Source: a virus | Lineage: Duplodnaviria; Caudoviricetes | Virus record (IMG/VR): IMGVR_UViG_3300028805_000037 | Location: 128,001-192,000 of that record | DNA length: 64,000 bases | Strand: one strand, 5' to 3' | Shown here: piece by piece, positions 35,635 through 42,361 of the stretch | How the letters are laid out: each line of letters starts with the position of its first letter | Position numbering within the stretch: the stretch's first letter is position 1 | The notes under the pieces: model-generated | What the model saw: the letters and a program-made list of their open reading frames with translations, nothing else | Told to the model about the DNA's origin: nothing | Database searches by the model: none | Translations under genes and position numbers: made by a program

Positions 35635-36246
35635 ATGCTTTTTCGTGGACGTAGATTAATAAAAACTACATTTGTAAGTATATTACAACAATTATTTACA
35701 AATGATCCTAAATTTCCATGGAATAAAAATGTATTACAAACAAAAATCTTTCTCGATGAAAGTTTTATGAGAAGTGATCGTAAATTCCCCTATATAGTAG
35801 TAACTGATGTAACTAATGACAATTTTTTTAAAACAAGCTTTGATAGAAATTATCAAACAGAAGTATATGATGATGAAGGAAATCTTAAAGGTACTCGTTA
35901 TGGTGGTGCTATGCATCCAAGTTTTAGATTAGAATTTGGTGCACTTAATATTTATGATCTTGAGATTATTATTGATAAAGTTGAATCATTTTTCGAATTT
36001 ACTGGTGTACAAAAATTACATGATGCTGGAATAGTAATTGAAAATATAAGTGATAGTGGAATAAATACAGAAACTTATGGTAAAGATAATGTATATATAT
36101 TAAGTATAACTTTTAATATATATACTGAATGGGAAAAATATATTACAGTTGAAGAAGCCGAACTTATTAATCAAGTTGAAGTAGAAAATATAACTATATA
36201 TGATAAAGATGATAATGTTTTACATATTGATAAACCTGGTGATTAG
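35635..36246 (+). CDS. tail completion/terminator protein
   Basis: FPYIVV motif; synteny upstream of the sheath. Confidence 0.55.
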   Translation: MLFRGRRLIKTTFVSILQQLFTNDPKFPWNKNVLQTKIFLDESFMRSDRKFPYIVVTDVTNDNFFKTSFDRNYQTEVYDDEGNLKGTRYGGAMHPSFRLEFGALNIYDLEIIIDKVESFFEFTGVQKLHDAGIVIENISDSGINTETYGKDNVYILSITFNIYTEWEKYITVEEAELINQVEVENITIYDKDDNVLHIDKPGD

Positions 36247-36356
36247 CAAAGTAAAATTTAAATTTCTATGAGAATTATTTTCTCTATACATTTCAACGAT
36301 GTTGTTTTACTACCAACTATCTCGATGTACATTTATGAATGATAGACTCACCCAAA
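36243..36356 (-). ncRNA. omega-RNA 1 (scaffold overlapping the tnpB 3' end, guide from ~36262)
   Basis: GGGTGA/TCATTC, GTTG/CAAC, GAGAA/TTCTC stems; TCTAT:ATAGA pseudoknot. Confidence 0.75.
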
Positions 36357-37625
36357 CTTTTTAAATTTAAAGCTGCATTTAAATCTCTATTTATTAAAGA
36401 ACCACAATTAGGACAAGTCCATTGTCTATCTTTTAATTGTAATTCTTTATATTTATAACCACAATTATTACAAATTTTAGAAGAAGCAAAAAATCTATCA
36501 GCAAATATTAAATACTTTCCTTTTCTTTTTAATTTATATTGTAATTGCCATATAAATTGAGCATAACCAAGATCATTTACTGATTTACCAAAAATTTTAC
36601 TCATTCCTTTTAAATTTAGAGATTCTACAACTATTATGTCATTTTCATTAACTAATTTATTACTTAAATTATGTAAAAAATTAGTTCTTTCATTAGTAAT
36701 ATGATAATGAATTCTACTGATTGATTTTCTCAGTTTTCTAAATCTATTACTATTATGTTTTTTCTTACTTATTTTTTTATTTAATTGTTTTAAATATTTT
36801 TCATATTTTCTATATAATCGTATATATTCTGGAGAATTATTATTTGAATCTATAAAAAATGATTGTAAACTCATATCTAAACCTAAAATTTTAGATTCAT
36901 CATTAATTTGTACTTGTTTAATATTAATATCTTGTTCAACATTAAAAGAAATAAAATAATGTTCTGAAGTATCTTTACTTATTGTAGCATGTTTAATTTT
37001 ACCTATTATTTTTCTTTTATCTTTATAATTTATCCATCCAACTATAGGTATTTTAATTTTATGATTATCATAATTAATTTTGATATTATTATTTATAAAT
37101 GATGTAGTATAAGAACCACCATATTTTTTCTTTTTAAATTGAGGAAAACCAAAATTATTTTTTACCTTTAATGATTTATAAAAATTATTATAAGCATCTT
37201 TTAAATTAACAAAAGTCCACATAAATGATTGTGAATCAACTTCATCCATAAATTTATATTCATTTTTTATTTGTTTTATTGTTTTATACTTATATTTATA
37301 TAATGTATTTTTATCATTTTTATATTTTTGATATATTTCTTTTCTTTCAGCTAACATTAAATTATACATTAATCTATTACAACCAATAGTTTTATCTATA
37401 AGTTCTTTTTGTTTATTATTAGGATAAATTCTAAATTTATAAGCAAATTGTTCCATAATTTTTAAATTTAAATTAAGTTGAATTTAATATTTTATATCAT
37501 TTAATTAAGTGCATAATTTAAATTTAAAAAGATAGGACGAATCCATCGCTCTTAAATGTACATCGAGATAGGAAGTATTAAATTCCATCAATGAAATGTA
37601 TAGAGAAATAAAATTCTCATGGAGA
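36263..37625. mobile_element. transposase-less tnpB element with two outward-facing omega-RNA ends
   Basis: 115-nt imperfect inverted repeats 36257-36371 and 37517-37631; excision restores a late-promoter motif. Confidence 0.8.
36317..37456 (-). CDS. tnpB: IS605-family TnpB
   Basis: YKFRIYP, RuvC LGLDM / VVESL / NRDLNAA, CxxC-CxxC. Confidence 0.95.
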   Translation of the reverse strand: MEQFAYKFRIYPNNKQKELIDKTIGCNRLMYNLMLAERKEIYQKYKNDKNTLYKYKYKTIKQIKNEYKFMDEVDSQSFMWTFVNLKDAYNNFYKSLKVKNNFGFPQFKKKKYGGSYTTSFINNNIKINYDNHKIKIPIVGWINYKDKRKIIGKIKHATISKDTSEHYFISFNVEQDINIKQVQINDESKILGLDMSLQSFFIDSNNNSPEYIRLYRKYEKYLKQLNKKISKKKHNSNRFRKLRKSISRIHYHITNERTNFLHNLSNKLVNENDIIVVESLNLKGMSKIFGKSVNDLGYAQFIWQLQYKLKRKGKYLIFADRFFASSKICNNCGYKYKELQLKDRQWTCPNCGSLINRDLNAALNLKSLGESIIHKCTSR

Positions 37626-37645
37626 TTTAAAATAGATTTTTAAAT
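37532..37645 (+). ncRNA. omega-RNA 2 (stand-alone paralogue, also leader of the sheath mRNA; guide from ~37626)
   Basis: 19- and 17-nt blocks identical to omega-RNA 1, with compensatory GGAA/TTCC and TCCAT:ATGGA changes. Confidence 0.75.
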
Positions 37646-37659
37646 GTGAGGTAAAATAT

Positions 37660-39402
37660 ATGACAAGATTAGGGCCGGGAGTTTATACAGAAGATGGAGC
37701 AAATGCAAATTTAGCTTCTTCTTTATCAGGATTTAATATAACAGCAGTTATTGGTTTAGGTAAAAATTGGAAATTAATTAGTGATGTTGAAATAGTTAAA
37801 TCTGAACCTGAAACAAATGAACCTACAGCAAATGAATTACTTTATAGTAATGTAGTTGATACATTTATTGGTGATAAATTAATTCCATATACAACTTATG
37901 TTTTACCTATAACTTCTTCAAATGCTGGTTATTATAGAGTTAATTCATCAATACAAGGTGCTTTAGAAGTTGTAAGTAATGATACTGAAAATCCTACAGA
38001 TAAACAAATAAAAATTGAAAATGTTACACCTTGGCAAGAATCAGATTCAGTTGTTATTGGTGATTATGTAATTGAATGTAATGATGGTGATTATCTTGAA
38101 AGAGATGAAGATGTAACTGGAGTAAAATTTGTTATACCTACATTAAAAAATAATGATATAATTACTGATGCAAATGGAGCTGCAATAGATTTTGATGTTA
38201 TACAAAGTATAGTAAGTTTAGGAACACTTCCTGGATTAAATCAATATAATATAAATCAAGATTATATAATAGAAAAAATTTCTTCAGAAGATGAATTAAA
38301 TGGCAAAGCTCAAATAACTTGGTTATATAATAATTATCCTGCAGTTGGTAGCTCATTTTATATTACATATAAGCAATTAAAAGATGATAAAGATTATTCG
38401 CCTAAATATAAATATTCTACTGAATCTATAACTAATGATTATGGAGCTGAATATGATAATGGTGTTGTAAATTCATTATCATTAGCAGCAGATCTTGTTA
38501 TTGAAGGCCAGACTGTATTTGGTGGTGGAGTTCTTTGTTGTCAAGTAAAAGATAATACTCTTCAAGGTTGGAAAGATGCAATAGATAAACTTGATAGTAA
38601 AGTATTTAATACATATATATTAACAAATCAGCAAGGCGAATTTGGACAACAATTACAAACATATTTAAAAAGTAAAATTGAAATGTTATCAAGTATAACT
38701 TATAAATCTGAAAAGACAGCATTTTATATTCCATTTGATAAAGATATGGAAATAGAAACAATTAATGCTTATAGAGAAGCTTTAAATTCACAAAGAATAA
38801 CATTATTTGGTAATAAAACTTGTACAGTAGAACTTGTTGATAATACAACATTAGAAACTGAATTTGTAGAATTACCTTCAATTTATGCTTGTGCAAATCT
38901 TTCTGGTATTGAAGGAAATCCTGAATATACATTTAGTGAACCTATGTTAAGAAAGCAATTATCACCAAGAATAACATTTAATGAAGAACAAAGATATAAT
39001 CCTTCTGAAATGACTTCACTTGATAATAATGGCGTTAGTATATTTGATATGGATTTATTAACAAATATTTCTTATGTATATGTTATTGGTACCACTGATA
39101 TGACTAATGTTATAACCGAAACTAGAGCTGTTAGAAGAGAAACTGATTTACTTAGACAAAATGTAAGAAGAAATCTTAATCAATACATTGGTAAAAAGAA
39201 TAAACCTATAACTGCTGCTAGTGCTACTGAAACAACAAAAGCGATGTTAAGAAATTTTGTTAATATTGATGAGATAGCTGGATTTAGAGATGTTACATCT
39301 TGGTTTGATGAACAAGATCCAAGATTATTAAAACAATCATTCTGGTATTTAAGTTATTTGGAAACCAGATGGATTCATGTAACTATTGGAGCAGAAATTT
39401 AG
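37660..39402 (+). CDS. contractile tail sheath protein
   Basis: PGVYTE N-terminus; C-terminal RRETD.LR...YIG...DPR..WIHVTI. Confidence 0.9.
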   Translation: MTRLGPGVYTEDGANANLASSLSGFNITAVIGLGKNWKLISDVEIVKSEPETNEPTANELLYSNVVDTFIGDKLIPYTTYVLPITSSNAGYYRVNSSIQGALEVVSNDTENPTDKQIKIENVTPWQESDSVVIGDYVIECNDGDYLERDEDVTGVKFVIPTLKNNDIITDANGAAIDFDVIQSIVSLGTLPGLNQYNINQDYIIEKISSEDELNGKAQITWLYNNYPAVGSSFYITYKQLKDDKDYSPKYKYSTESITNDYGAEYDNGVVNSLSLAADLVIEGQTVFGGGVLCCQVKDNTLQGWKDAIDKLDSKVFNTYILTNQQGEFGQQLQTYLKSKIEMLSSITYKSEKTAFYIPFDKDMEIETINAYREALNSQRITLFGNKTCTVELVDNTTLETEFVELPSIYACANLSGIEGNPEYTFSEPMLRKQLSPRITFNEEQRYNPSEMTSLDNNGVSIFDMDLLTNISYVYVIGTTDMTNVITETRAVRRETDLLRQNVRRNLNQYIGKKNKPITAASATETTKAMLRNFVNIDEIAGFRDVTSWFDEQDPRLLKQSFWYLSYLETRWIHVTIGAEI

Positions 39403-39415
39403 TTTTAAATATAAA

Positions 39416-39541
39416 AAGGTATTGCGAACACCTTAGACTAGTTAAAAATATTAATTATTATATTTTTTAATATAATATATAAATGTAGCTTATAGAATCT
39501 AGTCTAAAGTTCGCAAAACTTAAATAAAATTCTATAGGCTA
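39416..39541. other. structured intergenic element with inverted CTAGTCTAA/GTTCGCAA copies
   Basis: Pairings 39422-39441/39499-39516 and 39486-39498/39529-39541. Confidence 0.6.
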
Positions 39542-39564
39542 TTTTTATTTATGGAGATATAATA

Positions 39565-39690
39565 ATGAATAAAGAAGAAATACAAAAAATTATTGATGAA
39601 TTTATTAAAGAAGATTTTATTGTTACAAATAGCCAAGGATGTTTAAATTTACGTAATAATAAAAATATAATAAATAAATATAATAATTGA
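39565..39690 (+). pseudogene. 41-aa ORF, probably truncated by IS607
   Basis: GGAG SD; MNKEEIQKIIDEFIKEDF... decays into AT repeats. Confidence 0.4.
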
Positions 39691-39770
39691 AAATATATAA
39701 AATAATATAAAAAAATATAAAATTATTAAAACACTTTAATTTAAATTTAAAATAAATGAAGGAATAATAA

Positions 39771-40385
39771 ATGAAATCAAAACAAGTTTTAAAATTATTA
39801 CAAGTATCAAGAGTAACACTTTCAAAATATGTAAAGACTGGCTTAATTAAAGTAACAATGAAAAAAAATAAAACTTATGATTATGATGAAGATAGTATAT
39901 ATTCTTTTTTGGGAAAAAATAAAGTTGAAGAACAAAAATTAAATATAATTTATGCTAGAACTTCAAATCCACCTAAAAAATATGCTGAAGAGCAATCACA
40001 AAGAGTATTAAATTTTTGTACTTCTAAAGGTATACAAATAGATAAAATATTTATTGATGTTAAATCTGGAATGAATTTTCAAAGAATAGAATTTTTAAAA
40101 TTAATAGATTTAATAATTAATAATAAAGTAAAATTAGTAGTTATTGAAAATAAAGATAGATTAGTAAGATTTGGTTTTGAATTATTACAAGAATTATTTA
40201 AAAAGTTTGGATGTGAAATATTAATAGTAAACAATTTGTCTGAAAAAACTTATGAGCAAGAATTAACTGAAGATTTAATTTCAATAATACATTATTTTTC
40301 TATGAAATCATATTCTAATAGAAGAAAATTAAATAAAATTAAAGAAGAATTACAAAACAATGATAACATTAAAAATCAAATATAA
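39771..40385 (+). CDS. tnpA: IS607 serine recombinase TnpA
   Basis: N-terminal HTH, YARTS, DVKSG, KDRLVRFGF, ELTEDLISII. Confidence 0.95.
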   Translation: MKSKQVLKLLQVSRVTLSKYVKTGLIKVTMKKNKTYDYDEDSIYSFLGKNKVEEQKLNIIYARTSNPPKKYAEEQSQRVLNFCTSKGIQIDKIFIDVKSGMNFQRIEFLKLIDLIINNKVKLVVIENKDRLVRFGFELLQELFKKFGCEILIVNNLSEKTYEQELTEDLISIIHYFSMKSYSNRRKLNKIKEELQNNDNIKNQI

Positions 40386-41727
40386 CACTAATTTAAATAA
40401 TATAAATATAATTAAACAATATCAAAGACAATATACTATTTGTTATAAAGTTATATATAAATATTTAAAATTAGGTTTAAAATCTAATCAAATTAAAGAA
40501 AAATTAAAAAATTATAAAAATATTAATTTAATTATAAATAATTCTTGGTTTATAAATTGTTTATTTTATGATGTTAAATGCATTTTAAAAGAAACAAATA
40601 ATGTATGTTTTAATTATAATTTACATTTAAAAAGAAATAAAAATTTAATAACAAAACAAGAATTTAAAGAAAATAAGTATTTTCAAGTTTGTTCTAATGG
40701 AGAAATAGATAAAAAATGTAATAGATTCTTTAAAATTTTAAATATTAATCAAATTTTATTTAAGCCCAATAAATATACAAAAATATTATTAAATTTGCAA
40801 AGTTTAGGTAAAAATAGGATTAAAATATTACAACAATTATTAAATTTACAAAATAAAAATAATATTTTATCTATAACTTATAAATTAAATAAAGATTATA
40901 TTTATTTAACATTTGATGAATCTAATTTATCTTTAATTAAATTAAAACCAATAAATAATAGAATATTTGCTATAGATATGAATCCTAATTATATAGGTTA
41001 TTCTATTATAGATTGGAAAGATACTGAAAATTTAAAATTTAATCTTATTAATGCTGGCATAATTTCTTTAAAATCATTAAATGATAAATATTTTAGTTTT
41101 AAAAAATTAAAATTATCATCTAATAATAAATTAAAATTGCATTTAACTAATAAAAGAAAATTTGAAATCTTTGAAGTAAGTAAACAATTAATAAAATTAG
41201 CTAAACATTATAAATGTGAATTTTTTGCTATTGAAGATTTAAATATAAAATCTAATGATAAAAATTTAGGTAAAAAATTTAATAGTTTATGTAATAATTT
41301 ATGGAATAGAAATAAATTACAACAAAATATACAAAAAAGATGTAATTTAATAGGAATAAAATTTAAAAAAATAATTGCAAATTATAGTTCTATATTAGGT
41401 AATTCATTATATAGAAATTTAAAATTACCAGATATGATTTTATCTTCTATAGAAATTAGTAGAAGATGTCAAGAATTTAATTTACAATATATTAAAAAAA
41501 GTAAAAAAGTTACAAAAAATATTATTTTTCCAAATTTAACTGAAAAAGTAAGAAATTTATTAAATCAGACTATGGAAGTATTGGGAAATAAATTTCAATT
41601 TGAAACAATCAATAATTTTTGTTATTTTTTAAAAAAGAACTTTAAAAATAAATATAGAGTTCCTCTAGATTTAACTAGAGTCTTTAGACAAAAACATTTA
41701 AAATATCAATTAATAAATTTTATATAA
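40360..41727 (+). CDS. tnpB: divergent IS607-type TnpB (no zinc finger)
   Basis: RuvC AIDMNP / AIEDL / NYSS..G / PDM. Confidence 0.8.
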   Translation: MITLKIKYNTNLNNINIIKQYQRQYTICYKVIYKYLKLGLKSNQIKEKLKNYKNINLIINNSWFINCLFYDVKCILKETNNVCFNYNLHLKRNKNLITKQEFKENKYFQVCSNGEIDKKCNRFFKILNINQILFKPNKYTKILLNLQSLGKNRIKILQQLLNLQNKNNILSITYKLNKDYIYLTFDESNLSLIKLKPINNRIFAIDMNPNYIGYSIIDWKDTENLKFNLINAGIISLKSLNDKYFSFKKLKLSSNNKLKLHLTNKRKFEIFEVSKQLIKLAKHYKCEFFAIEDLNIKSNDKNLGKKFNSLCNNLWNRNKLQQNIQKRCNLIGIKFKKIIANYSSILGNSLYRNLKLPDMILSSIEISRRCQEFNLQYIKKSKKVTKNIIFPNLTEKVRNLLNQTMEVLGNKFQFETINNFCYFLKKNFKNKYRVPLDLTRVFRQKHLKYQLINFI

Positions 41728-41827
41728 ATTTATATTGTTTTAAATTGTTTTTGTTATTTAAATCAATTTAAAAATTGGTATAATAATTTAAATTTAAAAT
41801 AGATTTGTATAAGAGAGGTAAAAATAT

Positions 41828-42361
41828 ATGTCAGATATTTTCCTAAAACCGGGAGTTTCGCGTTACAAACTTGCAACTAATTATGAATGGTATGCTGTTG
41901 TACCTGGTACACAAAAACGTATAAAAATTGGTGGTTGTCAATCATTAAATGATTCGCAAACAAAAAATGTTACAAGAACTCATGAATTGAATATGGAAGA
42001 ACCTAGATGTGTAGAATTAACTCAAGGTTTAGTTACAGATATAAGTGTTACTGTTTCTAGAATAGAATTAAATACATCAAATTTACTTGAGGAGTTTACG
42101 GGAATTTCGGGAATCGAGTCATTATATGATCAAAGTTTATATTTTGATATAGAAGCTGCAGTATATATACCAAGACAAAATGCTGATGGAACTTTTGATC
42201 CTAAAAAAGAAAATGCAACAAGAATAATACAAAGAACTTATAAGGATTGTGTTATTACATCTTATGGAAGAAATGTAGGAATAGAAGGGAATATACAAGT
42301 AACTGAAAATGCAACAATACAAGTAAGATATATACAACCTGGTAGTAAATCTGAAAATTAA
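41828..42361 (+). CDS. tail tube protein
   Basis: IGGCQS..., YKDCVITSYGR...VTENATIQ; follows the sheath. Confidence 0.8.
   Translation: MSDIFLKPGVSRYKLATNYEWYAVVPGTQKRIKIGGCQSLNDSQTKNVTRTHELNMEEPRCVELTQGLVTDISVTVSRIELNTSNLLEEFTGISGIESLYDQSLYFDIEAAVYIPRQNADGTFDPKKENATRIIQRTYKDCVITSYGRNVGIEGNIQVTENATIQVRYIQPGSKSEN

Follow-up and report, generated by a model that had tools for sequence, protein, structure and literature searches.

A partial guide-RNA match at a phage tail-tube promoter, probably a by-product of a TnpB element inserted in the paralogous tail-sheath promoter

How does a phage tail-tube promoter come to carry a long match to a guide RNA of the phage's own TnpB element, and does this match expose the promoter to cleavage or recruit the enzyme as a regulator? 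The original prediction had described such a near-target and had offered two explanations for it, namely that its distal mismatches are escape changes that prevent self-cleavage, or that a TnpB with unusual RuvC motifs binds late promoters as an RNA-guided regulator. We analysed the window, by which we mean the whole 64,000-nucleotide stretch of DNA, corresponding to positions 128001-192000 of a 300,445-bp phage genome that is 98%-complete and has a GC content of 24.7%. An alternative genetic code (TAG = Q), prompted by DNA matches to Lak phages, proved needless as the standard code fits.

The near-target and its late promoter

The near-target spans 41787-41812 and comprises the following features.

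41787-41799, + strand: late-promoter motif TTTAAATTTAAAA, one of 27, preceding the putative tail-tube gene; the TAM-like TTTAAA makes up its first six bases (41787-41792)
41793-41812, + strand: protospacer-like stretch with 14 contiguous guide-2 matches, 17/20 in total and 15/16 of the first 16
41813-42361, + strand: ribosome-binding site GAGAGGT (41813-41819) and 177-aa putative tail-tube gene with its ATG at 41828, from the ORF list

Direct sequence comparison bore out the near-target as it had been described. The TTTAAA is followed at 41793-41806 by TTTAAAATAGATTT, which is identical to the first 14 bases of guide 2 (37626-37639), and over the full comparison of 41793-41812 with 37626-37645 the three mismatches fall at guide positions 15, 18 and 20, leaving a perfect 12-nt seed. 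This is the sole fit to guide 2 within the window, and among the 1,952 TTTAAA sites of the entire 300,445-bp genome it alone has a contiguous TAM-proximal guide-2 match of more than 9 nt. By its match the tube site is a predicted off-target or self-target of guide 2; the site itself is an ordinary promoter.

The motif TTTAAATTTAAAA occurs 27 times in the genome, 24 times on the + strand, and lies nearly always 15-35 nt upstream of start codons, mostly those of structural genes. It precedes the sheath gene in all five relatives whose sheath upstream region was seen, and the tube gene in two relative contigs, L014 and L032. A conserved motif that keeps a short fixed distance to genes and is retained in relatives fits a phage late promoter, and we refer to it as such. 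The earlier statement that every other late motif offers the TAM plus a 7-nt seed holds for the 27 TTTAAATTTAAAA sites, nine of which reach 9 nt; the latter are explained by TTTAAAATA, a common extension of the late motif. The putative tail-tube protein has a weak PHROG match to a virion structural protein, and its gene, which encodes 176-177 aa, comes directly after the sheath gene in 6/6 relative contigs that show this flank.

A TnpB element with two guide RNAs in the tail-sheath promoter

Guide 2 belongs to an element that lies upstream, next to the tail-sheath gene.

36243-36262, - strand: canonical guide TTTAAATTTTACTTTGCTAA, the flank of the canonical scaffold
36263-36367, - strand: canonical omegaRNA scaffold, overlapping the tnpB 3' end and starting at a late motif within codons L-N-L-K
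36317-37456, - strand: tnpB, 379 aa, ISDra2-like with an intact catalytic triad, from Pfam and PDB matches
37521-37625, + strand: second, inverted, protein-free omegaRNA scaffold copy, with an intact outward-facing late motif (37517-37529) ahead
37626-37645, + strand: guide 2, adjoining the second scaffold and made up of the sheath leader and the half of the sheath late promoter lying downstream of the split
37660-39402, + strand: tail-sheath gene, 580 aa, whose homologues carry PF17482 (Phage_sheath_1C)

Comparison with an empty site places the TnpB element at 36263-37625, at the exact junction of the TTTAAA halves that form the tail-sheath late promoter. In the relative contig L013, whose sheath protein is 98% identical, the element is missing and 36262 is joined to 37626 with no target duplication, so that an intact late motif, ATAGATTTT and the sheath leader run continuously; the element boundary coincides with this joint. 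Because the element splits the sheath promoter, guide 2 is native sheath promoter-leader sequence, and the other half of that promoter (TTTAAA, 36257-36262) would be the guide-2 TAM in the empty site. The same hexamer is the left neighbour of the insertion and flanks all three scaffold copies of the genome, and from these three flanks TTTAAA is likely to be the TAM, as had been predicted.

The empty site of L013 (L013:5085-5143) diverges from both guides in the seed, with an extra A after position 7 of guide 2 and divergence from the canonical guide (36243-36262) past position 10; by ISDra2 rules this relative would escape cutting by the present element. Genome-wide, the canonical guide has the TAM plus an 11-nt contiguous match at six late promoters and a 10-nt match at six more, since an A-run usually precedes late motifs. 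Seeds of 10-11 nt are under the ISDra2 cleavage threshold and within the reported range for binding without cutting.

TnpB carries the Pfam domains HTH_OrfB_IS605, OrfB_IS605 (RuvC) and Cas12f1-like_TNB zinc finger (E values of 1e-16, 2e-17 and 2e-20) and matches PDB entries 8bf8, 8exa and 8h1j at E ~1e-63 (8bf8: 9e-64). Its GLDMS, VESLN and NRDLNAA align to GVDVG, GTEHL and DRDENAA of 8bf8_A, with the catalytic D-E-D kept; we take the catalytic residues of ISDra2 to be D191/E278/D361. The proposal that DMS and ESL are non-canonical RuvC contexts, and hence mark a regulator, does not survive this alignment, as D/E/D coincide with the ISDra2 triad and the contexts of ISDra2 itself are DVG and EHL. 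From its motifs the protein does not look nuclease-dead. A PF01797 search found no Y1 transposase TnpA beside the element and no intact one in the genome. The sole PF01797 match, at 251.5 kb, covers a 39-residue remnant interrupted by a stop codon, beside a different tnpB. The latter, a fourth tnpB (genome 251474-252759, L031:1474-2759), encodes 384 aa of a different subfamily and follows this 44-codon Y1 transposase remnant, the only TnpA trace of the genome.

The second scaffold repeats the terminal 105 nt of the element in inverted orientation and is 80% identical to the canonical copy. Its structure was assessed by covariation among nine scaffold copies, three from this genome and six from related elements in metagenomes. 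The fold comprises five helices and 27 pairs, including a pseudoknot between the 5' hairpin loop and the 3' tail; 97.5% of the cells are paired, 16 pairs show compensatory changes in the nine copies, none of 500 shuffles reached this level, and sliding the partners makes the signal collapse. The late motif embedded in the tnpB codons L-N-L-K lies upstream of all helices, and the 3' end (...AUrGA-AA) is conserved in the nine copies. The second scaffold keeps 26/27 of the covariation-supported pairs and scores 110 bits with the covariance model. The genome holds exactly three copies, each followed by TTTAAA. Neither RNA of the element matched Rfam at E <= 1; searches of viral contigs with the sheath protein, TnpB, the scaffold pattern and the tube promoter pattern returned no matches, nor did a search of genome contigs with the scaffold pattern. 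Trimmed functional ISDra2 scaffolds, in which deletions kept or raised activity, measure 116 nt and ~98 nt (the latter by our own count), and the ~95-105 nt of the phage scaffold are within this range.

The start of guide 2 at 37626 agrees with the earlier assignment: an intact scaffold abuts this position, the scaffold end is conserved in the nine copies, and the L013 joint falls at the same point. Since the second copy has an intact fold, its own late motif and a length in the functional range, 37626 is a legitimate guide start. We infer that the late motif ahead of the second scaffold drives its transcription and that the RNA loads TnpB; it would then also be the 5' leader of the sheath mRNA. 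Both guide RNAs and tnpB sit behind late motifs. The late motif of tnpB (37460-37472, - strand) ends 4 nt ahead of the ATG, an interval that contains no ribosome-binding site, and this layout recurs in L020, L021 and L029.

A further solo scaffold lies outside the window (genome 199110-199213, - strand), also behind a late motif, and its guide position starts TTTAAAAAAGTTG. Both protein-free copies start at the same internal point of the tnpB 3' end, between one TTTAAA and the next, and this shared start points to a site-specific event at that position. A nested insertion, in which the present element entered an older copy of opposite orientation, would account for the second arm only with an extra 1.25-kb deletion between TTTAAA repeats. 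Among close elements, those with a visible left end (L020 and L029) lack the second arm.

Paralogy of the sheath and tube promoter-leaders

The leaders of the two genes had been described as paralogous, and comparison of the promoter-leaders sustains this. They are identical at 40/46 bases, against a mean of 31.9 +/- 2.4 for motif-led pairs, and no motif-led unit matches that of the sheath better than the tube unit (alignment score 31, next best 20). This identity lies in the range of known paralogous repeats, and the similarity spans all 46 nt of the unit, the ribosome-binding region among them. Of the 14 bases matched by guide 2, nine belong to the generic late-motif extension, and the specific part is the five bases GATTT, with a chance level of roughly 1-3%. 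The expected number of late motifs sharing the 7 extra bases by chance is ~0.01, and pairs of the 27 intact motifs have at most 6 in common. The simplest reading of these sequences is that the near-target match is not due to chance and arises from the promoter-leader paralogy of two adjacent tail genes.

The order of events can be read from the relatives and from an insertion that separates the sheath and tube genes in the window.

39402-41790, + strand: 2.4-kb insertion, absent in L032, made up of a DUF7487-type cassette (5' leader module plus N- and C-terminal ORF remnants) and a nested IS607-like pair
39771-40385: serine recombinase, IS607-like, from its Pfam Resolvase match
40360-41727: 455-aa TnpB-like ORF, following the serine recombinase

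Contig L032 encodes a tube protein of 91% identity, and there the late motif overlaps the stop codon of the sheath gene and is followed by ATAGATTT, the leader and the tube ATG, with no insertion; the contig measures 998 bp, too short to show whether its phage carries the TnpB element. Because the same promoter stands there directly after the sheath stop codon, the tube promoter is native, and we read 41787-41812 as the native late promoter and first leader bases of the putative tail-tube gene. L032 thereby rules out that the 2.4-kb insertion brought in the tube promoter, as had first been inferred from L013 alone. The paralogy predates the element: at loci free of the respective insertion, L013 has one of the two promoters and L032 the other.

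The insertion has AATTTA at both junctions and entered between TTTA and AATTTAAAA, leaving the late motif intact. Its 455-aa ORF had no Pfam, PHROG or PDB sequence match; it shows the RuvC-like motifs IDMNP, IEDLN and PDMILSSIEISRR, with no zinc finger, and is called TnpB-like on these motifs, which were read by eye. A paralogue of this ORF, 33% identical and without a recombinase, lies at genome 194094-195380, and the region has DNA-level relatives in Lak megaphages. Paralogous DUF7487 cassettes are found at genome 257688-263860. The mobile-looking cassette recurs directly after late motifs in the window (39402-41790), at genome 257688-263860 and at L013:7444-8053. It comprises a late motif and a structured, covarying leader (AGGTATTG.GAACACC...), together with a DUF7487 gene that ends in a stop codon running into the late motif that follows. 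The copy in the window, after the sheath gene, and that in L013, after the tube gene, are 97% identical and thus occupy different sites in close relatives. The sheath-tube spacer of L013 is 30 nt long and is without a full late motif; at L013:6880-6914 the initial 15 nt of the cassette (GTTTTAAATATAAAA) are retained and the late motif of the tube gene is missing. The spacer looks like a deletion scar that would have left the tube gene co-transcribed with the sheath gene.

Alternative readings and known systems

We consider the near-target to be probably a side effect of a guide taken from the flank when the promoter there has a duplicate, and not an evolved regulatory contact, because guide 2 is flank-derived sheath promoter-leader and this is paralogous to the promoter-leader of the tube. 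In this account an ISDra2-like TnpB element lies precisely between the TTTAAA halves of the tail-sheath late promoter; guide 2 is thereby the sheath promoter-leader itself, which with that of the tube forms a pair of paralogous units of ~44 nt. To our knowledge, the guide of all IS200/IS605-type elements is whatever DNA flanks the scaffold end. The competing view that two independent late promoters share five bases past TTTAAAATA by pure coincidence could appeal to the AT-rich genome and to the 9-nt prefix common to nine other motifs, but the expectation of ~0.01, the similarity of the whole 46-nt unit with the tube as best match of the sheath, and the adjacency of the two genes as functional partners make it very unlikely. 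Promoter paralogy explains the match and does not exclude a present consequence of it. In ISDra2, the closest relative with a solved structure, which uses a 16-nt guide, only positions 1-12 are essential and mismatches at 13-16 reduce cleavage without abolishing it (PMC13639567). If the second RNA is made and loaded, the tube site could by these rules be cut at reduced efficiency, and the phage would then tolerate or repair the cut, or the second RNA may be little used, or this orthologue may be stricter than ISDra2. The suggestion that the mismatches are escape changes fares poorly on the same grounds. The bases at guide positions 18 and 20 are the same in the tube site of the window and in L032, so these states look ancestral in the tube leader; position 15 differs in all three sequences, and since mismatches at 13-16 only reduce cleavage by ISDra2, a lone mismatch there would not protect the site (PMC13639567). 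Both functions proposed for the tube site, escape and regulation, are unsupported.

In the case of a genuine self-target, TnpB loaded with an expressed second guide RNA would cut the tube promoter of its own phage together with the same site in related phages, the cost being borne by recombinational repair among replicating genomes or offset by the cutting of competitors. The intact triad, the intact second scaffold behind an intact late motif, and the TAM with a perfect 12-nt seed and 15/16 equal bases all agree with this, as does cleavage by ISDra2 despite mismatches at 13-16 (PMC13639567). However, standing self-cleavage of an essential promoter should be counterselected, and yet this 98%-complete genome contains both the site and the RNA, which leaves the self-target unlikely. 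An RNA-guided regulator would instead use partial pairing to bind without cutting and so tune tube or general late expression, with 14 nt paired at the tube site, 7-9 nt of guide 2 elsewhere, and 10-11 nt of the canonical guide at twelve late motifs. Wild-type ISDge10 TnpB with a 10-nt guide does bind DNA without cutting it (PMC13507860), seed matches at late motifs are widespread, and tnpB and both RNAs stand behind such motifs. Since binding without cutting was shown with 10-nt guides, it fits the seeds of the canonical guide better than the tube site, whose 14-nt match with 15/16 is in the range of cleavage rather than of binding only. Moreover, seeds arise automatically from insertion into a repeated motif, the known RNA-guided repressors (TldR) are nuclease-dead whereas this triad is intact, and the arrangement was not found conserved in the relatives, L020 and L029 being without the second arm; we accordingly give the regulator very little credence. 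The boldest proposal, likewise a long shot, is that a nuclease-competent TnpB with the second guide RNA, equal to the sheath mRNA 5' leader, engages the tube promoter and, via 7-11-nt seeds, other late promoters, coupling processing of the sheath leader to tube and late transcription. If true, this would be natural RNA-guided feedback on tail stoichiometry by an enzyme still able to cut.

The preferred account, a by-product of promoter paralogy, can be set beside known systems. ISDra2 TnpB with its right-end omegaRNA (IS200/IS605) recuts the vacated site in RNA-guided homing (Karvelis 2021; Meers 2023, PMC10055086). The phage element resembles it in protein family, domain order and aligned catalytic D-E-D, in a scaffold that overlaps the 3' end of the gene and abuts the flank used as guide, in the pseudoknot between 5' hairpin loop and 3' tail, and in a likely TAM on the other side of the insertion point. 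It is unlike ISDra2 in that it resides in a phage, that it lacks an adjoining TnpA in a genome with no intact Y1 transposase, that its TAM appears to be TTTAAA instead of TTGAT, and that its scaffold is short (~95-105 nt). Moreover, its insertion divides the palindromic core of a promoter, and an additional scaffold in inverted orientation, behind a promoter of its own, means that both halves of the empty site are addressed. The TldR proteins are nuclease-dead TnpB-like repressors that bind promoters under RNA guidance (10.1101/2023.11.30.569447). The phage shares with them a TnpB-family protein and a guide complementary to the promoter region of a structural gene; however, RuvC catalysis is lost in TldR and the phage triad is intact, and the full target pairing of TldR contrasts with partial pairing at the tube site (14 contiguous, 17/20), which promoter paralogy explains. 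Like protein-free omegaRNA cassettes and PATE-like ORF-less IS200/IS605 derivatives, 37521-37625 and genome 199110-199213 each consist of a gene-less scaffold with a guide; unlike these, both start exactly at the tnpB-embedded late motif and one is fused in inverted orientation to a full element. The binding/cutting switch of ISDge10 (PMC13507860) offers a mechanism by which short seeds could lead to binding without cleavage, but that system was engineered in human cells with truncated guides, and for natural partial matches in a phage it serves as an analogy only.

The twin guide RNAs that split a palindromic late promoter are a more unusual feature than the near-target at the tube gene. When an element homes into a repeated regulatory motif, its flank-derived guide gains off-targets automatically. 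Such off-targets are a cost or an opportunity, and may mark the beginning of a path from selfish nuclease to RNA-guided regulator. This locus is a clean natural test case, as it combines a TnpB that looks active, two guide RNAs, relatives with a perfect empty site and, within the phage itself, a site with a perfect 12-nt seed and distal mismatches; binding versus cutting on these sites would indicate the complementarity that a natural TnpB needs.
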